A stretch of 64,000 bases of DNA, from positions 2,912 to 66,911 of the forward strand of contig URIY01000001.1 of NCBI GenBank assembly GCA_900547995.1, written 5' to 3'. Under the pieces are notes generated by a model that was not told the DNA's origin, did not search any database, and saw nothing but the letters and a program-made list of their open reading frames with translations. The translations under genes and the position numbers were made by a program. This document shows, one piece after another, positions 10,230 through 56,795 of this stretch (position 1 is the first letter of the stretch; every line of letters begins with the position of its first letter). This DNA is from an uncultured Mycoplasmatota bacterium. Lineage in GTDB: Bacteria; Bacillota_I; Bacilli_A; RF39; UBA660.

Positions 10230-11022
10230 TATGCACCTCAATTTGTGGATATGGTATCTTAATATTTTCTTTATCAAATAAATTCTTAATTTCTTTCATT
10301 ATTAATCTTTGTACTTCATATTGTTTATAAGACTCTGTTTCAGCCGTAATTCTAATAATTACAGCACTATCTGCAAGTTCATTTATACCAAGTACTTTAA
10401 TATCACTTTTTAAAAATGGTATTCTTTTATTTTTCTTGATATCAATAAACAAATTATTTAATAATTTTTCTACTTTTTCATAGTCTTCCTCATATGCAAC
10501 AGATACGTCAACAAGGGCAAATGATGACATTTGACTATAATTTATTACTTCTGAAATATTTCTATTTGATAAAATTTTAACCTCACCCGTATAACTTCTT
10601 ATACGTGTTGTTTTAAGTCCAAGACCAATAACCTCTCCTTTAAAATCTCCAACACTTATTATATCACCTATACAATATTGATTTTCAAATATAATAGTCA
10701 TTCCTGATATAAAATCTTTAAGCAAATCTTGAAGAGCAAGACCAACTACAAGTCCAAGTACACCAAGTGAAGCAATTAATGATTTAGTATCCACACCAAA
10801 AATATCTAAAATCATTAAAAGGGCAACTATTAAAATAAAATATTTAACAACATTATATACTAACGAATAAATAGTTTTTTGTTTATTAGAAATATTTTTT
10901 TTAATTTTAAAAAATCTTTTTAATAGTTTTTTACAAATTAAATTAAGTAAAAAAGATATAATAATAATCAATATAGGAGCAACAATCTCCTTAACTAGTA
11001 TTTTATCAAGCATACTATTCAC
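10213..11022 (-). CDS. MscS-family small-conductance mechanosensitive channel
   Basis: 269 aa. TM segments followed by ...GLALQDLLKDFISGMTIIFENQYCIGDIISVGDFKGEVIGLGLKTTRIRSYTGEVKILSNRNI..., the MscS beta-domain signature. Confidence 0.75.
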   Translation of the reverse strand: MNSMLDKILVKEIVAPILIIIISFLLNLICKKLLKRFFKIKKNISNKQKTIYSLVYNVVKYFILIVALLMILDIFGVDTKSLIASLGVLGLVVGLALQDLLKDFISGMTIIFENQYCIGDIISVGDFKGEVIGLGLKTTRIRSYTGEVKILSNRNISEVINYSQMSSFALVDVSVAYEEDYEKVEKLLNNLFIDIKKNKRIPFLKSDIKVLGINELADSAVIIRITAETESYKQYEVQRLIMKEIKNLFDKENIKIPYPQIEVHNGKGI

Positions 11023-11890
11023 CTATATTAATTACTTCAAGTATTCTATTTAAATCAGCTGTATTACTAAATGATATTTCAATCTTATGATTTCTAACCT
11101 TAACTTTAGAATCAAGTTTTTCACTCATTAGTTCTTCAATATATTTATACTCATCATTAGAATCTTGTCTATTTATTTTTACTTTTTTTTCAATTGTTTT
11201 ATCGCTAGTTATTTTTTCTATATCTCTAACTGGCATTTTCTTTTCAACTATTTCATTTGCCAGTTTTTTAATTTCTTCTTCATCAGATAATTTACTAAGT
11301 ACCCTTGCATGTCCCATAGATATATCATTTGATACAACTAAATTTTGAACATCATCAGGTAATTTTAATAATCCTAGCATATTTGTAATATGGCTTCTAC
11401 TTTTACCTACTTTTTTAGCAAGTTCTTCTTGTGTTAAATGTAAATTATTTAACATTAATTCATATGCTTTTGCCTCTTCCATCGCATTTAAATTTTCTCT
11501 TTGTAAATTTTCAAGAAGAGCTATTTCCATCATTTGTTCATCTGTAAAAGTTCTTATGATGGCTGGAATAGTTGTTTTACCTGCTAATTTACTTGCACGA
11601 ACACGTCTTTCACCTGCAATTATTTCATAACCTTTTATGCTTTTTTTAATTATAACTGGTTGAAATACACCATGTTCTTTTATTGATTCTGCAAGTTCAT
11701 TAAGTGCATTTTCATCAAATACTTTTCTTGGTTGATATGGATTTGGTCTTAATTCATCAAGATTTACTTCAATAATTTCTTCATTAGATGCAGAATCATA
11801 AATTTGTTTTTCAATACTTTCAACATCTAAATTTTCTGTATTAAAAAGTTGTTCCAATCCACGTCCTAATGCTCTTTTTTTATTATCCAT
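11015..11890 (-). CDS. parB: chromosome partitioning protein ParB (Spo0J)
   Basis: 291 aa. ParB N-terminal motifs (NPYQPRKVFDE..., GERRVRASKLAG) and HTH (SRSHITNMLGLL); immediately downstream of soj. Confidence 0.85.
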   Translation of the reverse strand: MDNKKRALGRGLEQLFNTENLDVESIEKQIYDSASNEEIIEVNLDELRPNPYQPRKVFDENALNELAESIKEHGVFQPVIIKKSIKGYEIIAGERRVRASKLAGKTTIPAIIRTFTDEQMMEIALLENLQRENLNAMEEAKAYELMLNNLHLTQEELAKKVGKSRSHITNMLGLLKLPDDVQNLVVSNDISMGHARVLSKLSDEEEIKKLANEIVEKKMPVRDIEKITSDKTIEKKVKINRQDSNDEYKYIEELMSEKLDSKVKVRNHKIEISFSNTADLNRILEVINIGE

Positions 11891-12702
11891 TAGTTACCTC
11901 CATTTTCTTCTTTTGCGGCTCTTTCGTTTCTTTCTATAACTTCTTTAGCTAGATTTAGGTATGCTTCTGTCCCTCTGCTATGTGGGTCATACGCTAAAAT
12001 AGGTTTCCCATGACTTGGTGCTTCAGATAAGCGAACAAGTCTAGGTATAATTGTATCATAAACTCTTTCTTTAAAATAACTCTTTATATCTTCAACTACT
12101 TCTAACCCAAGGTTGGTTCTATTATCAAGCATAGTTAAAAGAACGCCTTCTATATCAAGAGTTGGATTTAAACTCTTTTGAGCAAGCATTATTGTACTAA
12201 GTAGTTGCATTATTCCTTCCAACGCAAAAAATTCACATTGTACTGGAATTATTACTGAATCTGATGCTGTTAAAGCATTTGTAGTTAATACTCCAAGTGA
12301 TGGTGGACAATCAATGATCACAAAATCAAACATATCACGAGCTTGATCTAAATATTTTTTTAGCTGACCACCCTTTACAAATCCAGGTTCATTTCTACTT
12401 TTTTCCATTAATTCTATATCAGCACCTGCTAAATTAATAGTTGCAGGAAGTACATAAAGATTTTTAAATTTAGTCTTAATCATAACTTCTTTTAATGTAG
12501 CATTATCTATCAATAAATCATATACACTTTTACTAATATCTGCCTTGTTTATACCAATTCCTGTTGTTGTATTACCTTGTGGATCTAAATCTACTAATAA
12601 TACTTTCTTTTTTAATACTCCAAGTGAGGCTGCCAAATTAATGCTAGAAGTAGTTTTACCAACTCCACCCTTTTGATTTACTAATGAAATAATTTTTCCC
12701 AT
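11890..12702 (-). CDS. soj: chromosome partitioning ATPase ParA (Soj)
   Basis: 270 aa. Deviant Walker A KGGVGKTT and ParA/MinD fold motifs. Confidence 0.9.
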   Translation of the reverse strand: MGKIISLVNQKGGVGKTTSSINLAASLGVLKKKVLLVDLDPQGNTTTGIGINKADISKSVYDLLIDNATLKEVMIKTKFKNLYVLPATINLAGADIELMEKSRNEPGFVKGGQLKKYLDQARDMFDFVIIDCPPSLGVLTTNALTASDSVIIPVQCEFFALEGIMQLLSTIMLAQKSLNPTLDIEGVLLTMLDNRTNLGLEVVEDIKSYFKERVYDTIIPRLVRLSEAPSHGKPILAYDPHSRGTEAYLNLAKEVIERNERAAKEENGGN

Positions 12703-22759: not shown

Positions 22760-24325
22760 TTACTTTCTATTTTCAGCAATTTCTTTCAATTTTTCTTCTT
22801 TATCAATACGCATAAATATTGGTTCTGGATTACTTAATTTAATACCAAAATCCATACCTGTATAATCTTTTAATGTTTCATATCCATTATTGCTTGTATT
22901 TAATTGTTTAAATATTAAATTAGCAGTATCAGGTAAAAATGCTTGTAAAAGAACAGCACCATGTCTAATAGATTCTAATAGATTATAAATAACCGTTTTT
23001 AATCTATCTTTTTGTGTTTCATCTTTAGCAAGTACCCATGGCATTGTATCGTCTATATATTTATTACTTTTTCTAAATATTTCAAATAGTTCATCAATAG
23101 CATCTGCAATACGATAATTATTCATTTTTTCTTCTATTTTTTCTGGTGTACTTAAAACACAATTTCTTAATTCTCTATCAATATCAAGGATTTCACCTGG
23201 CTCTTCTACAACACCATCAAAGTATTTATGAGCCATACTTATTGTTCTATTAACTAAATTACCTAAAATGTTTGCTAAATCAGAATTAACTTTGTCAATT
23301 AAAAGATCATATGTAAATGTACCATCACTTGAAAAAGGTATTTCATGAAGCATATAATATCTAACAGCATCTACACCAAATATGCTAACCAAATCATCAG
23401 CATAAACAATATTTCCTTTTGATTTACTCATCTTATCATTACCAAATAATAACCATGGATGAGCAAATATTTTCTTAGGAAGCGGTAAATCTAAAGCCAT
23501 TAATATAATAGGCCAGTATATAGCATGAAAGCGTAATATATCTTTTCCTATTAAATGTACATCAGCAGGCCAATATTTTGAAAAATCCTTGTTATTAGAA
23601 ATTGGATCATAACCTAAGAAAGTAATATAGTTTGTAAGAGCATCTAGCCATACATATATAACATGTTTATTATCAAATGATACAGGGATACCCCAATCAA
23701 ATGATGTTCTTGATATACATAAATCTTGTAAACCTGGTTTAATAAAATTGTTGACTATTTCATTTTTTCTTGATTCAGGCTCTATAAAATCAGGATGTTC
23801 ATCCATGTATTTTACTAATCTATCAGCATAATTACTTAATTTTAAGAAATATGCCTCTTCGGATGATTTTACAACTTCACGACCACAATCAGGACAACAT
23901 CCATTTACTAGTTGTGATTCTGTCCAAAAAGATTCACATGGAATACAATATAATCCTTCATATGATCCTTTATAGATATCTCCCTGTTCATATAATTTAT
24001 TAAATATTTTTGATACTACCTCTTCATGTAAAGGATTAGTCGTTCTTACAAACTTATCATAACTTACATTCATTACATCCCAAATATGTCTTACTTCTAA
24101 AGCCACTTCATCAACATATTCTTGTGGTTGTAAACCCTTATCTATAGCCTTTTTTTGTATTTTTTCACCATGTTCATCTGTACCTGTTTGAAAATATACA
24201 TCATATCCTGTTAATCTTTTGTATCTTGCAATAGCGTCTGCTAAAACAATTTCATATGTATTTCCAATATGTGGTTTTGCTGACGCATATGCGATTGATG
24301 TTGAAATATAAAAATTCTTTTCCAT
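22760..24325 (-). CDS. metG: methionine--tRNA ligase (short form); start at MEKNFY with AGGAGG RBS
   Basis: Class I aaRS signatures (ASAKPHIGN for HIGH, KMSKS present) and zinc knuckle (CPDCGRE). The internal ATG at 24325 is preceded by AGGAGGAATAAA. Confidence 0.9.
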   Translation of the reverse strand: MEKNFYISTSIAYASAKPHIGNTYEIVLADAIARYKRLTGYDVYFQTGTDEHGEKIQKKAIDKGLQPQEYVDEVALEVRHIWDVMNVSYDKFVRTTNPLHEEVVSKIFNKLYEQGDIYKGSYEGLYCIPCESFWTESQLVNGCCPDCGREVVKSSEEAYFLKLSNYADRLVKYMDEHPDFIEPESRKNEIVNNFIKPGLQDLCISRTSFDWGIPVSFDNKHVIYVWLDALTNYITFLGYDPISNNKDFSKYWPADVHLIGKDILRFHAIYWPIILMALDLPLPKKIFAHPWLLFGNDKMSKSKGNIVYADDLVSIFGVDAVRYYMLHEIPFSSDGTFTYDLLIDKVNSDLANILGNLVNRTISMAHKYFDGVVEEPGEILDIDRELRNCVLSTPEKIEEKMNNYRIADAIDELFEIFRKSNKYIDDTMPWVLAKDETQKDRLKTVIYNLLESIRHGAVLLQAFLPDTANLIFKQLNTSNNGYETLKDYTGMDFGIKLSNPEPIFMRIDKEEKLKEIAENRK

Positions 24326-24335
24326 TTTATTCCTC

Positions 24336-24812
24336 CTAATTTGTACTACCAAAACCTGAAATTCTTTCATTGTTATTTAACTTATCATCTGATGTAAGTA
24401 AATACTTTGTAAAAATTCCTTGGATCGTTCTATCGCCTTTCTTAAAAGTAATTTCTTTATCGCCATGATTTTGAATACTATACCAAATATGTCCCTCATT
24501 ATCTTTATTGTTATAGTAGTCACTATCAATTATCCCTACTTGATTAGTAAGCCTAATGTTATATTTAAAACCTAAACTACTTCTTACATATAACTGTAAC
24601 ATTTCATCACTTTCCATTTTAGCCTTTATACCCGTTGGTATTTTTTTTATTTCACCTGGTTTAATAGTAAATTCCTCTATACATGTAAAATCATATCCAG
24701 CACTATTTTTAGTTGCACGGCTTGGTATATTATATGATTTATAAAGACTGATATCATCTTTTATATCTTTTTTAAATTGTTCATAACTTATCTTTTCAAA
24801 ATATCTATCCAT
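24336..24812 (-). CDS. dut: dUTP diphosphatase (dUTPase/dCTP-deaminase superfamily)
   Basis: 158 aa. Motif ...VRSSLGFKYNIRLTNQVGIIDSDY... matches dUTPase motifs 2 and 3. Confidence 0.6.
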   Translation of the reverse strand: MDRYFEKISYEQFKKDIKDDISLYKSYNIPSRATKNSAGYDFTCIEEFTIKPGEIKKIPTGIKAKMESDEMLQLYVRSSLGFKYNIRLTNQVGIIDSDYYNNKDNEGHIWYSIQNHGDKEITFKKGDRTIQGIFTKYLLTSDDKLNNNERISGFGSTN

Positions 24813-24825
24813 AATGCCTCCTAAA

Positions 24826-25070
24826 ACAAAAAAACATCCTCATATAAGGACGTTTAAAACGCGGTACCACCTTAATTTATAGTTTAAAACTATATCTCTT
24901 TCGTTTAACGCACTTTACCTTACGTTCTAACCTACATATCGATTAGACTACAATCCGAAACCATTTATTTTATGTCTTTATTATTTGCTTTCACCACGTG
25001 CAAATTCTCTTTGAATAAGATACATAAAACTCTTTTCTTCACTGTATTTATTAACCGTACTATACCATAA
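24826..25070 (-). ncRNA. T-box riboswitch leader upstream of dut-metG
   Basis: Minus strand contains the conserved T-box sequence AATTAAGGTGGTACCGCG (plus-strand coordinates 24860..24877). It is followed by a terminator hairpin AACGTCCT-TATATG-AGGATGTT + TTTTTTTG, then an AGGAGG RBS. Lies upstream of an operon ending in metG. Confidence 0.6.
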
Positions 25071-31218: not shown

Positions 31219-32064
31219 TTACCTCTCACTCTTCTTATGATATTCATTATATACATCACTTTTAGTCATTTTTCTTTCTTTAGCAACTAATTTTGTGGCT
31301 TCTTTTACATCAAATCCTTCTTTAATATATAAATTAACATGTTCAATAATTGAAAGATTATCATATGTTTTTTCTTCGTAATTGCCATCAATGACAATAA
31401 CAAACTCTCCCTTTGCATCTTTAACTTGTTCTCTGATATTTTCTAATGTATCACGATAAATCTCTTCAAACTTTTTACTTATTTCCCGGGAAATACAAAT
31501 TTTCCTATTTCCAAGGACATCATACATATCATCAAGTGTTTCTAGTAAACGATGTGGAGCCTCATAAAAAATTAATGTATATGGATAATTTTTTAAATCT
31601 TCCAACTCTTTTTTTCGTTTACTTGATTTATTACTTAAAAAACCAAAGAATAAAAATGGTTGGGGATTTAAACCCGAAGCAATTAATGCAGGAACAAATG
31701 CTGTTGTTCCTGGAAGAGCAACAACATTAAAATTATTATCAATGGCTGCCTTAGCCAATTTATATCCGGGATCACTAATTACAGGAGTTCCTCTATCACT
31801 TACTAAACCAACATTTTTACCTTCCTTTAAATAGTCTATTAATTTATTACTTGTTACATCTTCATTATAACTGTGACTTGACACTAATTTTTTACTAATT
31901 TCAAAATGTGATAATAACAAAGATGTTACTCTTGTATCTTCAGAAAAAATGACATCAACTTCCTTTAGAGTATTCAAACATCTTATACTAATATCATCTA
32001 AATTACCAATTGGTGTTGGTATTAAATATAATGTTGGACTATTATCATAACTTTTTTGTGACAT
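31219..32064 (-). CDS. rsmI: 16S rRNA (cytidine1402-2'-O)-methyltransferase RsmI (YabC)
   Basis: 281 aa tetrapyrrole-methylase fold (LYLIPTPIGNLDD..., SDRGTP...SDPG). Confidence 0.8.
   Translation of the reverse strand: MSQKSYDNSPTLYLIPTPIGNLDDISIRCLNTLKEVDVIFSEDTRVTSLLLSHFEISKKLVSSHSYNEDVTSNKLIDYLKEGKNVGLVSDRGTPVISDPGYKLAKAAIDNNFNVVALPGTTAFVPALIASGLNPQPFLFFGFLSNKSSKRKKELEDLKNYPYTLIFYEAPHRLLETLDDMYDVLGNRKICISREISKKFEEIYRDTLENIREQVKDAKGEFVIVIDGNYEEKTYDNLSIIEHVNLYIKEGFDVKEATKLVAKERKMTKSDVYNEYHKKSER
31481..31494. promoter_or_regulatory. Noc-binding site (NBS) ATTTCCCGGGAAAT, perfect 14-bp palindrome, inside rsmI
   Basis: Exact match to the B. subtilis NBS consensus 5'-ATTTCCCGGGAAAT-3'. A CCCGGG-centred palindrome is improbable by chance in a ~28% GC genome. 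Confidence 0.5.
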
Positions 32065-37333: not shown

Positions 37334-37774
37334 TCATTTTTTTCTTTTTTCTTTGAAGAATTTTTGTAATAATTCTAAACATTCTTTTCTATGTAACCCC
37401 TGTATAAACGATATATTTTTATAATTTTTATCTATTAATGAAAGATACTTGTTTATTTGTTCAAATTGTTCACCTGAAACACCATAAATCACTTTTTTTA
37501 TTCTACTTTGCATAATAACTGATGTGCACATAAAACACGGAGACAATGTTGTATAAAGTATACAACCATCTAAATGCCAAGTATGTAATTTATTTGAAGC
37601 CTTTTCGATTGCTACTATTTCGGCATGTTTAGTAATTTTTTGTTTTTTTTCACGTTCATTATATGCTTTAGCAAGTATTTTATCATCTTTTACAATTACA
37701 CATCCAACAGGCACATCACCATATTCAATTGATTTATTGGCTTCTCTTAAAGCAATTAACATATAATCTTTCAT
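37334..37774 (-). CDS. tadA: tRNA-specific adenosine deaminase TadA
   Basis: 146 aa. CDA motifs HAE (HAEIVAIE) and PCxxC (SPCFMCTS). Confidence 0.85.
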   Translation of the reverse strand: MKDYMLIALREANKSIEYGDVPVGCVIVKDDKILAKAYNEREKKQKITKHAEIVAIEKASNKLHTWHLDGCILYTTLSPCFMCTSVIMQSRIKKVIYGVSGEQFEQINKYLSLIDKNYKNISFIQGLHRKECLELLQKFFKEKRKK

Positions 37775-37791
37775 CTATACCTCCACAAAAA

Positions 37792-37880
37792 AAGCACACA
37801 CATTAAGTGACTTTTAAGGCTGCTACCTTCCGATTCTGACCTGGTTCAAGTATTAACGTTGTGCATATGTATTATTACAT
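37792..37880 (-). ncRNA. ffs: signal recognition particle RNA (small 4.5S-type SRP RNA)
   Basis: Reverse complement contains CCAGGUCAGAAUCGGAAGGUAGCAGCC, matching SRP RNA domain IV consensus (CCAGGUCAGGUCCGGAAGGAAGCAGCC). Flanked by complementary 5'/3' arms and followed by GCTTTTTTT. Canonical position between tadA and dnaX. Ends approximate. Confidence 0.65.
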
Positions 37881-37918: not shown

Positions 37919-37936
37919 ATGTTTCACGTGAAACAT
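37919..37936. promoter_or_regulatory. parS site 1 (ATGTTTCACGTGAAACAT, perfect palindrome)
   Basis: Contains the exact 16-bp parS consensus TGTTTCACGTGAAACA. Confidence 0.8.
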
Positions 37937-38026
37937 TTAATTGCAAATCAAAAGAAACTATATAATAGTATCTAATTTTTATATATTAATTATTATAATA
38001 TTTTTTTGTAAGTTTACATTAAAAAA

Positions 38027-38050
38027 TCAATGTTTCACGTGAAACATTGA
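38027..38050. promoter_or_regulatory. parS site 2 (24-bp perfect palindrome TCAATGTTTCACGTGAAACATTGA)
   Basis: Contains the exact parS consensus core. Confidence 0.8.
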
Positions 38051-38063
38051 TTTATATTATTTC

Positions 38064-38693
38064 TTACATAAATGCACTCATATCAGAATAAGAAATAGGA
38101 GTATTTACATCATCTATATCATAAGATTCTTCATTACAATTTATAAACATTTTCGAAAAGCGACGACCCTTTGATTCATTTAAAACTTTAAACATTTTGC
38201 AAGTTCCCAAATAATACATTAATAAATCATATCCGTTATAATTTGTTGCATTTGAATGTGACTTTTCAAAATTTTTCAAGCGTCCCTTTGCCAATCTTAT
38301 TTTAAATTCTTTTTCTATTTCCTTTATTATTTTTTTCTTAAAAGGTGTTTTTAAAATTGCATTTATTATTTCATTTTCGTCATAGGTTTCCATTCCATAA
38401 TTTAATATAGTAAGGTGTTCCTTAGACCATTTACTTGCATATTTGTCTCCTCTCAGATCTTCATCAGAGATTGGATAAGTAAATGATGCGCCTAAAATAC
38501 ATTCATTAACCTTTTTATTATTTAATGTTTTCCTCATAACAGTTTCAAATTCTTCTGTAGAACTTATTTTTTTATTTTTCTTTAATACTTTATGCAATAA
38601 AAGTTCAAGTTCCTTCATTGACAAAATTGTACTTTCCAAATATGAATCTTTTGCATTTGGATAATTTTTTATAAATAATATTTCATTTTCCAT
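38064..38693 (-). CDS. hypothetical protein (209 aa) embedded in the parS array
   Basis: ORF track. No recognisable motifs. Three parS copies lie upstream and two downstream. Confidence 0.4.
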   Translation of the reverse strand: MENEILFIKNYPNAKDSYLESTILSMKELELLLHKVLKKNKKISSTEEFETVMRKTLNNKKVNECILGASFTYPISDEDLRGDKYASKWSKEHLTILNYGMETYDENEIINAILKTPFKKKIIKEIEKEFKIRLAKGRLKNFEKSHSNATNYNGYDLLMYYLGTCKMFKVLNESKGRRFSKMFINCNEESYDIDDVNTPISYSDMSAFM

Positions 38694-38778
38694 AGCTAAA
38701 TTTCCTTTCTTATTGGAATATATTACAGCATTAAATATTATATGTCAATAAGTATTCTTTTTATTATTAAACCAAAAG

Positions 38779-38800
38779 TAATGTTTCACGTGAAACATTA
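38779..38800. promoter_or_regulatory. parS site 3 (22-bp perfect palindrome TAATGTTTCACGTGAAACATTA)
   Basis: Contains the exact parS consensus core. Confidence 0.8.
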
Positions 38801-38908
38801 GAATATATATTTATATAGAATGCCTTTTTGGGTAACAATAACAAAATTTATTTTTCAATTTTATTATCTAATGTAATAGTTTCTTTAAAAAATTATTTTT
38901 CATAATAA

Positions 38909-38940
38909 TAAAACAATGTTTCACGTGAAACATTGTTTTA
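38909..38940. promoter_or_regulatory. parS site 4 (32-bp perfect palindrome TAAAACAATGTTTCACGTGAAACATTGTTTTA)
   Basis: Contains the exact parS consensus core with an extended symmetric flank. Confidence 0.8.
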
Positions 38941-38958
38941 AATTAAATTCTTTTTATT

Positions 38959-38976
38959 ATGTTTCACGTGAAACAT
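38959..38976. promoter_or_regulatory. parS site 5 (ATGTTTCACGTGAAACAT), abutting the gyrA stop codon
   Basis: Contains the exact parS consensus core, immediately 3' of gyrA. Confidence 0.8.
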
Positions 38977-41490
38977 TTATTCTTCTGTTGAATTTTCATT
39001 ACTGATTTCTTCAACTTTATCAACAATAGCAACTGTACTTACCTTTTGATTATCCTTTAGATTAATTAATCTAACACCTTGAGCAACTCTTCCGGTAGAT
39101 GATACTTGATCTAGTGGTAATCTTATGATAATTCCATTATCAGTAATTACCATTAAATCTTTATTTTCATCGTTTAAAGTTTTACATGCAACTATATTAC
39201 CATTTTTTTCTGTTACATTTAGTCCCTTAACACCTTTACTACCTCTATGAGTCATTCTATATTCGCTTATACTAGTTTTTTTACCATAACCGTTTTCTGT
39301 TACAACTAATACTTGATCATCAGTGTTTGCAATCTCACAATCAACTGCTTTACCATCACCAAGGTCAATACCTCTTACACCTGATGCTGTTCTTCCCATA
39401 ACACGAATTTCATTTTCATCAAAACGTATCATTCTTCCATTTGAACCAGCAATAATTATTTGATTACTTCCATTAGTTTTCTTTGCAGAAATTAATGCAT
39501 CATCATCTTTTAGTGTAATAGCAATCTTACCATTGCTTCTGATGTTTTCAAATTCACTAATATTGGTTTTCTTAATTAAACCGTTTTGTGTACAAAGTAC
39601 AATATAATTATTTGTATCATTATTAGTTACCTTTAACATTACTGTTATTTTTTCATCCTTATCAATTGTTAGCAAATTTACAATTGGTAAACCTTTAGAT
39701 TGCCTATTAAATGTTGGTATTTCATATCCCTTAACACGATATACTTTACCTTTATTACTAAAGAATAATAGATAGTCATGTGTTGTCATAGTAACAATAT
39801 TTTCAACAAAATCTTCCTCGTTTGTTGTCATACCCTTAATACCAACACCTCCACGATTTTGTAACTTGTATGTATCAGTCGTTACTCTCTTAATATACCC
39901 TTTATTTGTAAGAGTAATTATAATATCTTCTTCTGGTATTAATGATTCATCTTCAATATAATCAATAGCAGTCATATCAATGCTAGTTCTTCTATCATCG
40001 GCATATCTTTGCTTAATTTCAAGCATTTCATCTTTAATAATTTGATATACTCTATATTCATTAGCAAGAATATCCTTATAATCTTTAATTAATTCTAATA
40101 ATTCATTTAATTCTTGCTCAATTTTATCTCTTTCTAAGGCTGTTAATCTTCTTAATTTTAATTCTAGAATTGCATCAGCCTGAATATCAGATAATCCAAA
40201 GCGTGATATCAATTTTTCTTTTGCTTCTATATCACTTTCAGCATTTCTAATTATTCTTATTACTTCATCAATATAATCCAAAGCAATTTTATAACCTTCT
40301 AAGATATGAACTCTCTTCTCAGCCTTGGCTAAGTCAAATTTTGTTCTTCTAATAATAACAATTTTTTGATGATCTATATATTTTGATATAATATCCTTTA
40401 AACCAAGCGTTTTTGGAGTTAACCCATCAAGCATTAAGAATATTATTCCATATGAAATTTGAAAATTAGTATGTTTATATAGATTATTAAGTACAACATT
40501 TGGATTAGCGTCCTTTTTAAGAGTAATTGTTATCTTTACACCATCTTTTAAATCAGTATGATAATCGGCAATTCCATCAATAATCTTATTATGAACAAGT
40601 TCAGCAACCTTATTTTTTAATTCAAGGGTATTAACACCATATGGCACCTCTGTAAAAACAATACTACTATGATTGCCATGTTCTTCTATTTCGGCTCTAC
40701 TACGTATTGTTATAGTACCTCTACCTGTTTCATATGCCTTTTTAATTCCTGAATTTCCTAAAATAATACCACCGGTTGGAAAATCAGGTCCTTTAATATA
40801 ATTCATAAGTTCAAGTGTTGTAATATCAGGATTATCAATAAAAGCAACACATCCATCAATTACCTCACCTAAATTATGGGGAGGAATATTTGTTGCCATA
40901 CCAACGGCAATACCCATTGTTCCATTTACCAAAATATTAGGAAATCTAGATGGTAAAACGGATGGTTCTTTACATGTTTCATCAAAGTTACTGTCCATAT
41001 CAACAGTATCTTTATTTATATCTCTAAGTAATTCAAGAGAAATCTTAGAAAGACGAGCTTCAGTATAACGGTAAGCAGCGGCTCCATCACCTTCGATGTT
41101 ACCAAAGTTACCATGGCCATCAACTAACATATATCTTTCATTAAAATCTTGAGCAAGTCTTACCATAGCCTCATATATAGAACTATCACCATGTGGATGA
41201 TAATGTCCCATAACATATCCAACCGTAGTAGCACTCTTCTTATGTGGCTTATCTGGAGTATTATTTTCCTCGTACATTGACCATAATATTCTTCTATGAA
41301 CAGGCTTTAATCCATCTCTTAAATCTGGAAGTGCACGAGATGCAATAACACTCATTGAGTAATCAAGAAATGATTGTTGTACCTCATCAACAATATTATT
41401 TTCTTCTAAACTATCCCTTTCATGAAAATCACCATGAAAATTATTTTCTTTTTGTTCTTTTTCTTCTGAATTTAATACATCTTTATCCAT
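38977..41490 (-). CDS. gyrA: DNA gyrase subunit A
   Basis: 837 aa. Active-site region (AAAYRYTEARL...), QRDR-like segment (HPHGDSSIYEAMVRLAQDF), C-terminal beta-pinwheel repeats. Confidence 0.95.
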   Translation of the reverse strand: MDKDVLNSEEKEQKENNFHGDFHERDSLEENNIVDEVQQSFLDYSMSVIASRALPDLRDGLKPVHRRILWSMYEENNTPDKPHKKSATTVGYVMGHYHPHGDSSIYEAMVRLAQDFNERYMLVDGHGNFGNIEGDGAAAYRYTEARLSKISLELLRDINKDTVDMDSNFDETCKEPSVLPSRFPNILVNGTMGIAVGMATNIPPHNLGEVIDGCVAFIDNPDITTLELMNYIKGPDFPTGGIILGNSGIKKAYETGRGTITIRSRAEIEEHGNHSSIVFTEVPYGVNTLELKNKVAELVHNKIIDGIADYHTDLKDGVKITITLKKDANPNVVLNNLYKHTNFQISYGIIFLMLDGLTPKTLGLKDIISKYIDHQKIVIIRRTKFDLAKAEKRVHILEGYKIALDYIDEVIRIIRNAESDIEAKEKLISRFGLSDIQADAILELKLRRLTALERDKIEQELNELLELIKDYKDILANEYRVYQIIKDEMLEIKQRYADDRRTSIDMTAIDYIEDESLIPEEDIIITLTNKGYIKRVTTDTYKLQNRGGVGIKGMTTNEEDFVENIVTMTTHDYLLFFSNKGKVYRVKGYEIPTFNRQSKGLPIVNLLTIDKDEKITVMLKVTNNDTNNYIVLCTQNGLIKKTNISEFENIRSNGKIAITLKDDDALISAKKTNGSNQIIIAGSNGRMIRFDENEIRVMGRTASGVRGIDLGDGKAVDCEIANTDDQVLVVTENGYGKKTSISEYRMTHRGSKGVKGLNVTEKNGNIVACKTLNDENKDLMVITDNGIIIRLPLDQVSSTGRVAQGVRLINLKDNQKVSTVAIVDKVEEISNENSTEE

Positions 41491-44637: not shown

Positions 44638-45090
44638 TTATTCACCTATTTTCCTTCTCCTTAATACAGAATCTAATCTGGTCGCTCTTAAAATTTGATT
44701 TTCGATACTTTCAAATGATATACATAATTCTAACTGATAACCATTTATAAATTCTAATGTTGTACATTTTCTTTCTCTTTTATAATCAGTCAAATTATTT
44801 AAAGATATCCAAGAACATTCTTTACCCCTTGGTGATGATGTTGGAAAGAAAATAATATTCTTTGTCTCTTCGATTATAATTGGTGATTTATAGTTTATAC
44901 CCATTAAATGTTTAGTTCCTTCAAATCGACCCATATAAGAACTTCCAAAAAATTTACAACTTTCATCAATTATTGACATTGCGGATTTTTCCACATAAAA
45001 TTCATCCTCTTTCTCAACAACTTTAGAAATTTTATTATTTATCCATATTATTGCACATGTTGATGAATTAATTTCATACGTCTTTTTCAT
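44638..45090 (-). CDS. comK: ComK-family competence transcription factor-like protein (probable start at MKKTYEI)
   Basis: ...IIDESCKFFGSSYMGRFEGTKHL...IIFFPTSSPRGKECSWISL...SFESIENQILRATRL... aligns with B. subtilis ComK (VDRSCRFFGSSYAGRKAGTYEV...IFLFPTLSSTRPQCGWIS...SFENQVYRTAWL). Confidence 0.6.
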   Translation of the reverse strand: MKKTYEINSSTCAIIWINNKISKVVEKEDEFYVEKSAMSIIDESCKFFGSSYMGRFEGTKHLMGINYKSPIIIEETKNIIFFPTSSPRGKECSWISLNNLTDYKRERKCTTLEFINGYQLELCISFESIENQILRATRLDSVLRRRKIGE

Positions 45091-45231
45091 TTTATTCCCC
45101 CTATTTATATCTTTCTCCAAAAAAAGAAATTATCCTTGTTATATCATACAAATTTGTCAAATTTTATCATTTTTTGTCGCAGATTTGACATTTTTGTCGT
45201 TTTTGACAAAAAATGTAGAAAAAAAGAACTT

Positions 45232-46392: not shown

Positions 46393-46492
46393 TGTGGATA
46401 TGGTGGATAACTTTACAAATCCTTTAATTTTAAGGTATAAAACAAGTGTAAATTATTCATCATTTCCTGTGGATTTTCTTAGTTTTTCCACT
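46393..46492. other. oriC, dnaA-dnaN intergenic part: DnaA-box cluster
   Basis: DnaA-box-like 9-mers: TGTGGATAT (46393..46401), GGTGGATAA (46402..46410), TGTGGATTT (46468..46476), TTTTCCACT (46484..46492). Confidence 0.5.
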
Positions 46493-47931: not shown

Positions 47932-48154
47932 TGTGGAAAATTATTTCCCAGGCAATAATAAATTAACTAAATCACAGCATATTCACATATTTTTCCACAA
48001 GGTAAAGTCTTTAAAAATAAAGAAAAAAGCTAATAATTAACATTAACTGTGGAAAAAATATTAACTATGTGAATTGAAATATATAAAGTTTTCCACAAAT
48101 TATGTGAATTTAAAATAAAACCTTTAATTTTTAACAAAAAAAGTATGTGGAAAA
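47932..48154. other. oriC, dnaA-rpmH part: five regularly spaced DnaA boxes (TTTTCCACA type)
   Basis: TGTGGAAAA at 47932..47940, 48048..48056 and 48146..48154; TTTTCCACA at 47991..47999 and 48089..48097. Orientation alternates with ~45-60 bp spacing. AT-rich region follows. Confidence 0.7.
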
Positions 48155-52276: not shown

Positions 52277-54148
52277 ATGAATTATGAAATAATTGTTGTA
52301 GGTGGTGGACATGCGGGATGTGAAGCAAGTTTAGCAGCTTCTAGAATAGGACATAAAACATTATTAGTAACAGGCAATATTAAAAATATTGCTGATATGC
52401 CATGTAATCCATCAATAGGTGGTAGTGCTAAGGGTATCGTGGTACGTGAAATTGATGCCCTAGGTGGAGAAATGGGACGTAATGCTGATAAATCATTACT
52501 TCAAATAAAAATGCTTAATAATAAAAAAGGACCTGCAGTTCAAGCGTTGAGAGCGCAAGCCGATAAAATTACATATCCAAAGGAAATGTTAAAAACATTA
52601 AATGCAGAAAAAAATTTAGAGATTATAGAGGCATTAGTTAAAAAACTTGTGGTTGAAGATGGCAAAGTAGTCGGTGTAGAGTTAGAAGATGGCCGAATAT
52701 TTAATTCTAAATGTGTTATTTTAACTACTGGCACATATATGAAAGCCGATATTTTAGTAGGAGATACTAGAAGAAGAGAAGGACCACATGGTGAAAAACC
52801 TAGTAACTATTTAAGTGAAAATTTGGAAGAATTAGGTTTTCAAATAAAAAGATTAAAAACAGGTACTCCACAAAGAATAGAAAAATCTTCTATTAATTAT
52901 GATAATTTGAAGTTGGAGCCGGGGGATGATGATTACCTAACTTTTAGTTTTGATAACAATATTTATTATGATAAAGATAAACAAGTACCTTGTTATCTAA
53001 CTTATACAACTGAAGAAACACATAAAATAATACTTGAGAATTTACATAAATCAAGTATGTATGGAGGACTTAATGATATTAAGGGAATAGGTCCAAGATA
53101 TTGTCCTTCTATTGAAGATAAAGTTGTTCGTTTTAAAGATAAAGAAAGACATCAAATATTCTTAGAGCCAGAAAGTAATTATTATGATGATATATATATT
53201 CAAGGTTTTTCAACAAGTATGCCCCATGACATTCAAGAAAAGATGGTCCATAGTCTTCCAGGATTAGAGAATGCAAAAATACTAAAATATGCTTATGCGA
53301 TTGAATATGATGCGATATATCCAACACAACTAAAGCAATCACTTGAAACTAAATTAATAGAAAATTTATATACAGCAGGTCAAATAAATGGCACAAGTGG
53401 TTACGAAGAAGCAGCATGTCAAGGTTTAATAGCAGGTATAAATGCATCACTTAAAATAGAGAATAAAGAACCACTCATCTTAAAAAGAAATGAAGCATAT
53501 ATCGGGGTTTTAATTGATGATTTAGTGACTAAAGGAATAAGAGATCCATACCGTCTTTTAACATCAAGAGCAGAATATCGTTTATTATTAAGACATGATA
53601 ATGCTGATTTAAGACTTGGTGAAATTGGTAAAAGGGTAGGATTATTAAGTAATCAAAGATATGAAAAATTATTACAAAAGAAAAAAGATATAAATGATTT
53701 GATGAATTTATTAAAAGAAAGCAAAATTACACCAACAGAAGAAATAAATAGTAAATTAAGTAATATACCAACCAATCCTATAAAAGATGGCATAAAACTA
53801 TATGAATTATTAAAACGACCAGAAGTTAGAATGGAACATATTAAATATTTTATAGATATTCCTTATTCAGAAGAGGTTGTTAATCAAGTTGAAATAAATA
53901 TCAAATATGAAGGATATATTTTAAAAGAAGAAGTAGAAGCCGAAAAAATGTTAAAATTAGAAAATAAACCTATACCAGAAGGAATTGATTATTATAAGAT
54001 TCATAATTTAGCAAGTGAAGCCAAACAAAAATTATCAGAAGTAAGACCAACATCAATAGGACAGGCAATTAGAATAAGTGGAGTTAATCCTGCAGATATT
54101 TCAATCCTTAGTATTTATATAAAAAAGGAGTATTTTCATGAAAATTGA
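52277..54148 (+). CDS. mnmG: tRNA uridine 5-carboxymethylaminomethyl modification enzyme MnmG (GidA)
   Basis: 623 aa. FAD-binding GGGHAGCEA N-terminus and GidA family length. Confidence 0.9.
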   Translation: MNYEIIVVGGGHAGCEASLAASRIGHKTLLVTGNIKNIADMPCNPSIGGSAKGIVVREIDALGGEMGRNADKSLLQIKMLNNKKGPAVQALRAQADKITYPKEMLKTLNAEKNLEIIEALVKKLVVEDGKVVGVELEDGRIFNSKCVILTTGTYMKADILVGDTRRREGPHGEKPSNYLSENLEELGFQIKRLKTGTPQRIEKSSINYDNLKLEPGDDDYLTFSFDNNIYYDKDKQVPCYLTYTTEETHKIILENLHKSSMYGGLNDIKGIGPRYCPSIEDKVVRFKDKERHQIFLEPESNYYDDIYIQGFSTSMPHDIQEKMVHSLPGLENAKILKYAYAIEYDAIYPTQLKQSLETKLIENLYTAGQINGTSGYEEAACQGLIAGINASLKIENKEPLILKRNEAYIGVLIDDLVTKGIRDPYRLLTSRAEYRLLLRHDNADLRLGEIGKRVGLLSNQRYEKLLQKKKDINDLMNLLKESKITPTEEINSKLSNIPTNPIKDGIKLYELLKRPEVRMEHIKYFIDIPYSEEVVNQVEINIKYEGYILKEEVEAEKMLKLENKPIPEGIDYYKIHNLASEAKQKLSEVRPTSIGQAIRISGVNPADISILSIYIKKEYFHEN

Positions 54149-54842
54149 TGAATTTATAGAATCATTACGTAAACTTAATATAGATATAACAAGTAGGCAA
54201 TTGGAACAATTGGAAGAGTATTATAATTTATTAGTAGAATGGAATGAAAAGATTAATTTAACCAGAATTACCCTTAAAGATGATGTTTATCTAAAACATT
54301 TTTATGATAGTGCTACCATAGTAAAAGTAATTGATTTAAATAAAGTTGATACTTTTTGTGATTTTGGCACAGGAGCAGGTTTTCCTGGTATTGTTATAAA
54401 AATATTATTTCCCCATTTAAATGTTACTTTAGTTGATTCTTTAAATAAGAGAATTAATTTTCTAAATATTGTAATTGAAAAATTAAAATTAGAAAAAATT
54501 GTTGCTATTCATTCAAGAATAGAAGATTTTGCTAGAACACATCGTGAAAAATTTGATTTAGTAACAGCACGAGCCGTAGCCTCTCTTCCAGTACTGTTAG
54601 AATATGCAACAGGTATAATAAAGAAGGATAAATATTTTGTTGCTATGAAAGCAAGTATTGACGAGGAATTAGAACAAAGTATTAATGCCCAAAAAACATT
54701 AAAAATTAAACTTATAGATAAGAATAGTTTTTTACTTCCAAAAGAAAACAGTGTAAGAAATATTTTACTATTTCAAAAGCAAGAAAGAACTAATTTAAAA
54801 TATCCAAGAAATCCTTCAGAAATAAAGAAGAAACCATTATAA
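54138..54842 (+). CDS. rsmG: 16S rRNA (guanine527-N7)-methyltransferase RsmG (GidB)
   Basis: 234 aa. SAM motif DFGTGAGFPGI; follows mnmG. Confidence 0.85.
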   Translation: MKIDEFIESLRKLNIDITSRQLEQLEEYYNLLVEWNEKINLTRITLKDDVYLKHFYDSATIVKVIDLNKVDTFCDFGTGAGFPGIVIKILFPHLNVTLVDSLNKRINFLNIVIEKLKLEKIVAIHSRIEDFARTHREKFDLVTARAVASLPVLLEYATGIIKKDKYFVAMKASIDEELEQSINAQKTLKIKLIDKNSFLLPKENSVRNILLFQKQERTNLKYPRNPSEIKKKPL

Positions 54843-54941: not shown

Positions 54942-56795
54942 ATGAAAGATAATAGGCAAGTAGTAGTATTAAATTTAGATGATATTCTACCTAATCGTTT
55001 TCAGCCACGTATTAAATTTGATGAAAAGGCTATTGTAGAATTATCAGAATCAATAAAAGAACATGGTGTTATTCAACCAATCATTGTTAGAAAAATAGAT
55101 GATAAATTTGAAATAATTGCTGGTGAAAGAAGATATAAGGCTAGTGTTATGGCTGGTAAAACAACTATTCCAGCTATTGTTGTTGATTTAAATGATAAAG
55201 AAAGTTCGGAAATTGCTTTAATTGAAAATGTACAAAGAAAAGATTTAACTCCAATAGAAGAGGCTATCTCATATCGAAAAATATTTGATATGGGAAATAT
55301 TACTCAAGAGGAATTAGCAGCCAAACTTGGTGTGTCACAATCAACTATTGCTAATAAAATGCGTCTTTTAAATCTTGATGATGAAGTTCAGGATGCACTA
55401 TTAGATGAAAAAATTTCAGAAAGACATGCAAGATCATTATTAAAGTTATCTAAAATGTCAGAACAAAGAGAAATGTTAAAAAGAATAATAACTGAAAGAC
55501 TAACTGTTAGAAGAACAGACGAAGAAATTGAAAAGATAATAAAGGGGAATAATATGAATATAATGGATAGTTTTAATAATAAAGTTGAAGAACCAATTCA
55601 AAATAATATAAATAATAACGAAGGTAATAATAATCCATTTAATATAAATGTGGATTCTAATCAAGCAGTAACTAACACAAGTACAGAAAATTATAATAGT
55701 AATGTTAATAATATAGAAGTATTTGATTTTGCTGATTTTGGAGATAATAATCAAACTGTAAGTCAACCAATAAATAATGTACAAGATATTAACATGCCAC
55801 AATCTCCAATTTTTGAAGATAATAATACATCATCATTTGTACCAAATGAAATTCCAAATGATTTTGTAATGAATAATACAGGTATGGGAAATGATAATTT
55901 TACTAATAATGTTAATCAAAATGTTACTAATAATGTTATGCCTCAAATGCCAATTGTAGATGATACAATTCCAGATATAACAAAACAAGATACTGTTGCT
56001 AATCCTTTTGTTGAAACTCAAGATGTAGTATCTCAAGGTAGTGCAAATGAACAAGAATTTAGTATGCCACAGGCACCAATTATACAAGATAATGAATTCC
56101 AAAAAGTTGTTAATGATGATGATGATAATGATAAAACTATAACTATGGAGCCAATTAATATTAATAATCAAAATACGGAGTTTAATGAATTTACAAATAA
56201 TCAAGTCCCAACTACTAATTCTTTAGATAATGAAAATGATATACAAGATGAGCCTGAAATTAAACAAGGAAGATTTTTCAATATTTTATCTAATGATGTA
56301 GATGATGAAACATCAACAAATAACCAAGAAGAAATGTCATTTAATGGCTTTAATAATCAAATGACTGATAATAATATAAATAATGCAAATGATAATTTAC
56401 CTAATAATGAATATATGGTTAATCAAGAAGAAACTAATAATAATATTTTTAATTCTTTTGGTAATTTTGGTTCAATCGATAAACAAGTTAATAATCAAGT
56501 AAATGATATACCAAATCAAGTAAATTTTGATAATAATATCCCAAATAATACATTTAATTATAATTCAACACCAGTTGAGCCAGTATATGATGATGTTAAT
56601 GAAGAACCTGAAAATAATTATAATAATAATGTAAATAATGCCGAAACAGTAGTTGCAGAACCAACTTTAAAAGATATAATATCTATGATAAGAAAGTGTG
56701 CAGATGATATAGAAAAACAAGGATTTGAGTTAGATTCTGAAGAATTTGATTTCCAAGATATATATCAAGTAATATTTAAAATAAAGAAAAAATAA
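54942..56795 (+). CDS. noc: ParB-family nucleoid occlusion protein Noc-like, with ~400-aa Asn/Gln-rich low-complexity C-terminal extension
   Basis: N-terminal ~200 aa with ParB motifs (FQPRIKFDE..., GERRYKASVMAG) and HTH (SQSTIANKMRLL); canonical position after rsmG. Residues ~210-617 are N/Q/D-rich and compositionally biased. Confidence 0.65.
   Translation: MKDNRQVVVLNLDDILPNRFQPRIKFDEKAIVELSESIKEHGVIQPIIVRKIDDKFEIIAGERRYKASVMAGKTTIPAIVVDLNDKESSEIALIENVQRKDLTPIEEAISYRKIFDMGNITQEELAAKLGVSQSTIANKMRLLNLDDEVQDALLDEKISERHARSLLKLSKMSEQREMLKRIITERLTVRRTDEEIEKIIKGNNMNIMDSFNNKVEEPIQNNINNNEGNNNPFNINVDSNQAVTNTSTENYNSNVNNIEVFDFADFGDNNQTVSQPINNVQDINMPQSPIFEDNNTSSFVPNEIPNDFVMNNTGMGNDNFTNNVNQNVTNNVMPQMPIVDDTIPDITKQDTVANPFVETQDVVSQGSANEQEFSMPQAPIIQDNEFQKVVNDDDDNDKTITMEPININNQNTEFNEFTNNQVPTTNSLDNENDIQDEPEIKQGRFFNILSNDVDDETSTNNQEEMSFNGFNNQMTDNNINNANDNLPNNEYMVNQEETNNNIFNSFGNFGSIDKQVNNQVNDIPNQVNFDNNIPNNTFNYNSTPVEPVYDDVNEEPENNYNNNVNNAETVVAEPTLKDIISMIRKCADDIEKQGFELDSEEFDFQDIYQVIFKIKKK

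Follow-up and report, generated by a model that had tools for sequence, protein, structure and literature searches.

A tight cluster of five parS palindromes downstream of gyrA, probably the chromosomal centromere of an uncultured Mycoplasmatota bacterium

In Bacillus subtilis, the parS sites are dispersed and mostly intragenic, one of them lying in spo0J itself, whereas certain plasmid centromeres, such as F sopC, are made up of tandem repeats. The published parS consensus is TGTTNCACGTGAAACA, in which position 5 is a degenerate N (PMC7022226). The number of sites differs between species, with 10 in B. subtilis (PMC7022226) and 10 in Corynebacterium glutamicum, 21 in Streptomyces coelicolor, and five in Caulobacter crescentus (review table, PMC7022226). 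In Pseudomonas aeruginosa, a four-site parS cluster is the closest to oriC (PMC4368675). Here, a stretch of 64 kb from an uncultured Mycoplasmatota bacterium (contig URIY01000001.1; the window, with position 1 as its first letter) was investigated, in which five perfect parS palindromes are clustered within 1.06 kb of non-coding DNA between gyrA and the signal recognition particle (SRP) RNA gene. From the sequence, it is likely that these palindromes are the loading sites of a chromosomal ParABS segregation system, and thus the centromere of this small genome of 25 % GC.

Five exact copies of TGTTTCACGTGAAACA are present in the window, with cores at 37920-37935, 38031-38046, 38782-38797, 38917-38932, and 38960-38975, as had been reported in a first-pass annotation made from the letters alone. 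Within the 64 kb, no further sites were found at two or fewer mismatches, for which the chance expectation is a mean of 0.01 (100 dinucleotide-preserving shuffles), and there is a single site with three mismatches, at 37466. All five match canonical parS at 16/16 positions. In each case the core has an A on one side and a T on the other, extending it to the 18-bp ATGTTTCACGTGAAACAT, and the perfect palindromes around the cores, in ascending order of position, are 18, 30, 22, 32, and 18 bp in length. The positions first assigned to the sites (37919, 38027, 38779, 38909, and 38959) mark the starts of these extended palindromes and not the 16-bp cores, and 38027 falls short even of that, since this palindrome starts at 38024; accordingly, of the three long palindromes originally given as 22, 24, and 32 bp, the first and last lengths stand and the second is really 30 bp.

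Starting from gyrA, the sites are designated parS-A to parS-E. The core of parS-A, within an 18-bp palindrome (38959-38976, unstranded), starts 1 nt past the gyrA stop codon, and the site is kept at the equivalent position in loci L001-L008 and L089-L093 of related genomes. The core of parS-B lies in the 32-bp perfect palindrome at 38909-38940 (minus strand), the likely intrinsic terminator of gyrBA, and its sequence is invariant among the relatives compared. parS-C, in a 22-bp palindrome (38779-38800, unstranded), precedes by about 34 nt the −35 element of the promoter-like site of ORF209, an open reading frame (ORF) of 209 aa within the array. The 30-bp perfect palindrome of parS-D (38024-38053, minus strand) begins 10 nt past the stop codon of this ORF and is its likely terminator, and parS-E (18-bp palindrome 37919-37936, unstranded) is about 20 nt upstream of the −35 (TTGCAA, 37899-37894) of a promoter-like site for the SRP RNA. 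The sites are related to one another: parS-B and parS-D are paralogous, with 85 % identity over 47 nt, as are parS-A and parS-E, with 96 % identity over 28 nt, and parS-D and parS-E belong to a duplicated 111-bp tandem unit, each copy of which is a parS followed by a promoter-like stretch. The spacings between sites are irregular (43, 135, 751, and 111 bp). Helical phasing of the five sites was considered and rejected, as these distances follow no pattern.

The array starts at the 3′ end of gyrA (38977-41490, minus strand), both in the window and across the clade, and in the window it is bounded by the SRP RNA gene, ffs (37779-37873, minus strand; Rfam RF00169, 53.6 bits). All of the surrounding genes are encoded on the minus strand, with tadA and dnaX coming after the SRP RNA gene. 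The GC-skew minimum, at about 48 kb, coincides with the cluster of DnaA boxes of oriC upstream of dnaA (47932-48154, unstranded), and a further DnaA-box cluster is present at 46393-46410. By these markers the array is 9-10 kb from oriC, in agreement with the placement of about 9 kb made earlier, and is therefore origin-proximal.

A partner for these sites is also encoded in the window. The presumed reader of the array is a ParB/Spo0J protein of 291 aa (11015-11890, minus strand; Pfam ParB_N and HTH_ParB), in an operon with a ParA/Soj ATPase of 270 aa (11890-12702, minus strand; Pfam AAA_31 and CbiA, and NCBIfam partition ATPase families), which provides the partner ParA of a ParABS centromere. 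The best solved relative of this ParB is B. subtilis Spo0J (6SDK, 215 bits, as compared with 158 bits to Noc), and it carries both the GERR box, for binding of cytidine triphosphate (CTP), and the N-terminal LGRGL motif. Four positions set DNA specificity in the ParB family and, in parS-specific variants, R173 is invariable, G is the most preferred residue at 201, and positions 179 and 184 are free (Jalal et al., 2020). Alignment to 6SDK places R173, M179, K184, and G201 at these positions, the RxxG parS-specific class. As read from this alignment, ParB has the residues of parS-type specificity and fits the role of cognate ParB for the array. The parB gene itself contains no parS, as first described. 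Features of a chromosomal ParABS centromere that are present here, as judged from sequence, are the consensus inverted repeat, an origin-proximal location, a cognate ParB, a ParA, and conservation of the sites.

That conservation is evident when related genomes are compared. A GyrA-anchored scan, using one genome per species, gave 80 loci from uncultured gut 'Bacilli', 'Tenericutes', and Mycoplasmatota, including Acholeplasma sp. CAG:878 and Candidatus Fimihabitans, in which GyrA is 63-81 % identical to that of the window. With one mismatch or none allowed, there are 314 parS within 2.6 kb downstream of gyrA in these loci, as against two, both of them one-mismatch sites, in the other 1.18 Mb of origin-proximal flanking sequence. 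There are between 0 and 16 copies per locus, with a median of four; in the 53 loci with enough downstream DNA, at least two sites are present in 47 and at least five in 25. The arrays are mostly without a protein-coding gene; the gene for the SRP RNA is either within the array or at the end of it. Among the one-mismatch variants, 94 out of 119 are changes of T to C at position 5; this concentration matches the degeneracy of the published consensus and the known tolerance of ParB.

Arrays across the clade and paralogous sites within the window indicate that the array is old, grows by local duplication, and has acquired ORF209 as a recent guest. Growth by local and tandem duplication is seen directly in the relatives. 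One locus has a true tandem array with 17 copies of a 34-bp unit (L060, 12507-13088) and another has two blocks of a 63-bp unit (L079, 12518-13201). There are also 15 sites in 1.8 kb in L085 (12705-14550).

The first-pass annotation had found the canonical sites concentrated in one tight, origin-proximal cluster, which holds within the window, and the cluster is detached from parAB. It had also presented this tightness as special, from a comparison with B. subtilis that was too narrow. When metagenomes were scanned for two perfect parS 15-45 bp apart, at least 120 loci were found, in DNA of 30-70 % GC; pairs and triplets of perfect parS within 100 bp are therefore widespread. Among the 120 loci listed, the tight pairs adjoin parA in 77, most loci have two or three sites, and eight have 5-15. 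In one of them, on an unrelated metagenome contig, 15 sites are packed into 984 bp close to dnaA (L119, 1044-2030). Tight pairs in such diverse bacteria, together with the published clusters, show that tight clustering is normal for bacterial centromeres.

Compared with the origin-proximal clusters of C. glutamicum, S. coelicolor, Caulobacter, and P. aeruginosa, the window array is alike in its 16-bp consensus, in having several sites near oriC, in the accompanying ParA and GERR-box ParB, and in the presumed nucleation of ParB and loading of SMC. It differs in being very compact and wholly non-coding, in lying away from parAB, which is about 36 kb from oriC, and in belonging to a clade in which the base flanking the core hardly varies and longer palindromes enclose one site in three. 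Unlike the metagenome pairs that adjoin parA, it is at the 3′ end of gyrA beside the SRP RNA gene. The B. subtilis Spo0J/parS system has the same consensus, is from the same phylum, and provides the closest solved ParB; however, in the window, spo0J has no site and all of the sites seen are in one non-coding array. The tandem arrays of L060 and L079 and the duplicated 111-bp unit of the window resemble plasmid centromeres of the F sopC type, although the repeats are built around the chromosomal consensus parS and not around a sequence specific to plasmids, and the window sites are irregularly spaced. What is particular to the window array is its location, its separation from parAB, its strictly non-coding placement, and the palindrome extensions.

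By analogy with other organisms, ParB would bind each of the 16-18-bp sites through its helix-turn-helix, close as a CTP-dependent clamp, and slide outwards. With five such loading sites within 1.06 kb, a dense zone of ParB would form 9-10 kb from oriC, which ParA/Soj would move and from which SMC would be loaded. ORF209 would stand outside this mechanism, having its own promoter and being exchanged between strains and species together with parS-bearing flanks. Weighing against the centromere interpretation, the window search covered 64 kb of the genome, so that parS may be present elsewhere, and the copy numbers of the arrays come from metagenome-built assemblies, in which the assembly of repeats may distort them.

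The palindrome extensions had been taken as a hint of constraint beyond the 16-bp core, and this is supported by the flanks of 195 perfect sites from 53 loci of relatives. An A adjoins the core in 98 % of half-sites, and there is a C at position −3 in 42 %. At least five further complementary bases on each side are present in 36 % of the 189 unique sites; when flanks are re-paired at random, extensions of at least 5 bp occur in 2.9 % (maximum 9 %), making those observed 12 times more frequent. The extended sites have 26 distinct arm sequences. It is complementarity, and no one flank sequence, that is maintained. At perfect parS of unrelated bacteria, A is at position −1 in 57-63 % and long extensions are present in 6-11 %, 3-6 times rarer than in this clade.

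Two of the extended palindromes in the window have the features of Rho-independent terminators. A terminator scan gave three matches where 0.3 were expected. At parS-B, the call has a 14-bp stem, a 4-nt loop, and a T-rich tail, TTATTATG on the gene strand. The RNA of parS-B folds at −15.3 kcal/mol (z = −5.0) and that of parS-D at −13.8 kcal/mol (z = −4.1), with no shuffle as stable in either case; at parS-D, the gene-strand tail is TTTAATG and the final arm itself ends in TTT. The other three sites in the window fold weakly and are without an extended stem or T-run. A stem-loop with a U-tract directly after a stop codon is found at 38909-38940 and 38024-38053. Likewise, in many relatives the palindrome of the first site past gyrA is extended, and a T-run is confined to its downstream side: at least five T are present downstream in 16/30 first sites, versus at least five A upstream in 7/30. 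The arms of these first sites differ between genera (for example, GAA/TTC, GGAA/TTCC, GTAA/TTAC, and ATCAA/TTGAT) yet stay complementary, as do the stems of terminators. In contrast to ordinary Rho-independent terminators, the stem is topped by a palindrome that binds protein, and it is AU-rich and symmetric and could act bidirectionally. The cores at 38917 and 38031 thus probably also serve as RNA terminator hairpins, of gyrA and ORF209, respectively, and across the clade some parS are inferred to double in this way. A literature search on parS within terminators, on arrays downstream of gyrA, and on parS in Mollicutes-like lineages found nothing specific.

There are points that tell against a terminator role and, with them, other explanations of the palindromes to consider. 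The stems have only three G-C pairs in an otherwise AU-rich helix, the tail after parS-B is a weak, interrupted U-tract, and, beyond the first site, a T-rich tail accompanies just 9/66 of the sites with an extension of at least 4 bp. As internal extended palindromes are often without a T-run, termination cannot explain all of the extensions. A perfect palindrome promotes template switching within the strand during replication, by which one flank is copied onto the other (quasi-palindrome correction), and the extensions could be an unselected, mutational by-product of this process. The lack of T-runs at internal sites and the great diversity of the arms, with 26 types, are as this would predict, whereas it does not account for the pairing of extension with a downstream-only T-run at first sites in many genera, for the two extended window sites being exactly where the gyrA and ORF209 terminators would be expected, or for the rarity of extensions at perfect parS of other bacteria. 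As a general explanation it is therefore possible but rather doubtful, although the internal sites keep it a live alternative for part of the extension signal. Conversely, the terminator-like character of two of the five sites might be taken to mean that all are merely terminator-like repeats, or repeats of the repetitive extragenic palindromic (REP) type, that resemble parS and are not used by ParB. This is scarcely credible, given that the canonical match is complete at every one of the five, that three have neither extended stem nor T-run, that variation in relatives follows what ParB tolerates at position 5, and that the window encodes a ParB whose type is parS-specific.

The gene inside the array, ORF209 (38064-38693, minus strand), encodes a helical, hypervariable orphan protein, with three sites 5′ and two 3′ of it, as originally set out. 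A promoter-like site precedes it (38720-38748, minus strand; TTGACA, 17-nt spacer, TAATAT; 10/12 consensus matches), and a ribosome-binding site, AGGAAA, can be read between this and the ATG at 38693. The description of the protein as motif-less also holds: nothing was above cutoff in Pfam, NCBIfam, PHROGs, or PADLOC, with weak matches only in the latter two, and the best Pfam family, T4_MRH, is sub-threshold (17.5 bits against a cutoff of 24.4). The proposed check of its structure gave no fold match, and no recognisable DNA-binding or ParB-interacting fold. A word-indexed search found 12 close homologues only, from two species only, and an HMMER profile search of 1.84 billion representative proteins yielded no remote homologue. 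The reading frame is intact in all homologues, and all of those examined are in the context gyrA-ORF-SRP RNA-tadA with five parS, three before the ORF and two after; the five sites are in register in 14 ORF209-carrying loci.

Within one species, ORF209 alleles are 80-98 % identical at the nucleotide level, compared with 98-99.4 % for gyrA. The protein alignment is a mosaic in which two variable blocks, set among conserved ones, are reassorted from one allele to another, and the ratio of non-synonymous to synonymous substitution (dN/dS) is 0.66-1.33 in ORF209 versus 0.04-0.30 in gyrA, tadA, and dnaX. One allele (P0011) is shortened to 171 aa through loss of the first variable block. Two tandem, divergent paralogues of the gene, about 65 % identical, are carried by some strains of the same species (L007, 10001-11360; L008, 9853-11212; L092, 5001-6264). 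Against a second species (L001), the stretch between the gyrA stop codon and the SRP RNA gene is 85-97 % identical, where the flanking genes are 66-80 % identical, and synonymous divergence (dS) is 0.16 in ORF209, versus about 1.0-1.2 in gyrA, tadA, and dnaX. Identity above that of the flanks, combined with low dS, points to exchange of the cassette between species. As judged from these comparisons, ORF209 is a lineage-restricted, fast-evolving late insertion into an older array and not a part of the segregation machinery; its lateness follows from the fact that dozens of related species have the array but not the ORF, which is found in only two.

A link between the gene and the array had been proposed in the first-pass annotation, along with a comparison of their co-occurrence in relatives, and that comparison, in which the array is widely present without ORF209, does not bear it out. 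In its fullest form, the proposal would be that ORF209 is functionally tied to the centromere, and for that reason retained, either through expression gated or silenced by ParB or through a product that acts on the partition complex. It is true that the ORF, wherever it occurs, is inside the array and flanked by sites to the left and right, that a parS lies between the two tandem copies in L092, and that the cassette is passed from species to species along with its parS flanks. In P. aeruginosa, excess ParB is reported to repress promoters adjoining parS3 and parS4 (PMC5521831). However, in B. subtilis, loss of Spo0J leaves the expression of genes adjoining parS unchanged (PMC7022226), and no parS overlaps the −35 or −10 of the ORF209 promoter-like site, which is invariant across four loci. 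A dN/dS of 0.7-1.3 with reassorting blocks is unlike a core segregation factor, the ORF is restricted to two species, and its product has no recognisable fold that would bind DNA or ParB, so that a functional tie is unlikely. It is likewise improbable that the parS-flanked cassette is a centromere-resident module under diversifying selection, which would be coupled to ParB loading, by a dependence of ORF209 expression on it or by an action of the product on the partition complex, and would be passed between strains and species through recombination in its near-identical flanks with parS, in a clade that would in parallel have given parS palindromes two roles, loading ParB as DNA and forming terminator hairpins as RNA. 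The same excess of identity between the two species, the low dS, and the orphan status of ORF209 could also be explained if the 1.1-kb segment were the remnant of a mobile element, that is, a plasmid or phage partition cassette with ORF209 as cargo, integrated downstream of gyrA, and not a native centromere. This origin was rejected, and is very unlikely, as the array is found across the clade without the ORF, in the same intergenic space of relatives with GyrA 63-81 % identical. Furthermore, there is no integrase, replication gene, or terminal repeat between gyrA and tadA, a tblastn search with ORF209 found no match in 72,556 plasmid and 50,697 phage records, the sites have the chromosomal consensus, and the window has a single ParAB pair, which is of chromosomal type.

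With the palindromes interpreted as ParB loading sites, a centromere would be located for an uncultured, small-genome gut lineage, binned variously as Bacilli, 'Tenericutes', or Mycoplasmatota. The array keeps its place at the gyrA 3′ end, beside the SRP RNA gene, even as its copy number varies between 0 and 16, which provides a natural series for the effects of parS number and spacing on ParB loading, and the array could be used as a marker of the origin region in metagenome-built assemblies. Two modest leads are the terminator function that some parS may have in addition and the hypervariable gene in the array, neither of which alters the understanding of ParABS.

A caution for annotation also arises from the array. 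The 18-bp ATGTTTCACGTGAAACAT begins with ATG and reads MFHVKH, creating false gene starts in the form of spurious ORFs and false N-terminal extensions of tadA. Cases of this are present in relatives at L026 12814, L041 3359, L052 12709, and L085 12855.

The window also encodes a Noc-like paralogue of ParB, of 617 aa (54942-56795, plus strand), directly after rsmG (54138-54842), which is adjoined by this gene alone and not by parAB. An MscS channel gene comes after the parA-parB operon, which is itself about 36 kb from oriC, and the usual rsmG-noc-parAB order is not seen. The best solved relative of the Noc-like protein is Noc (7NG0, 202 bits), and its residues at the specificity positions are Q, K, N, and R. 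About 25 first residues, which precede the matched domain in solved Noc chains, are missing from it; in B. subtilis Noc, that N-terminal stretch is a membrane-targeting helix. Between the DNA-binding part and a short C-terminal domain are about 365 low-complexity residues rich in N, Q, and D. The possibility that the five palindromes are Noc-binding sites (ATTTCCCGGGAAAT, read by Noc with Q173/R201) was rejected, as the specificity bases differ. A perfect Noc-binding site, TATTTCCCGGGAAATA (31481-31494; 31480-31495), is present elsewhere, within a gene with a TP_methylase domain (31219-32064), and recurs at the equivalent position in relatives. With its own Noc-like protein and a separate perfect Noc site, the window has both specificities, and they are distinct. 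In several genera, Noc sites are inside or adjoining the parS array, near the gyrA 3′ end (L009, L010, L024, L025, L049, L050, L076, L086, and L087).

Two further features were recorded in the window. A gene with a ComK domain (44638-45120, minus strand) is situated between dnaN and recF in the origin core and is conserved in all close relatives. A T-box leader (24843-25051, minus strand; Rfam RF00230, 100.8 bits) is present upstream of the genes at 22760-24812.

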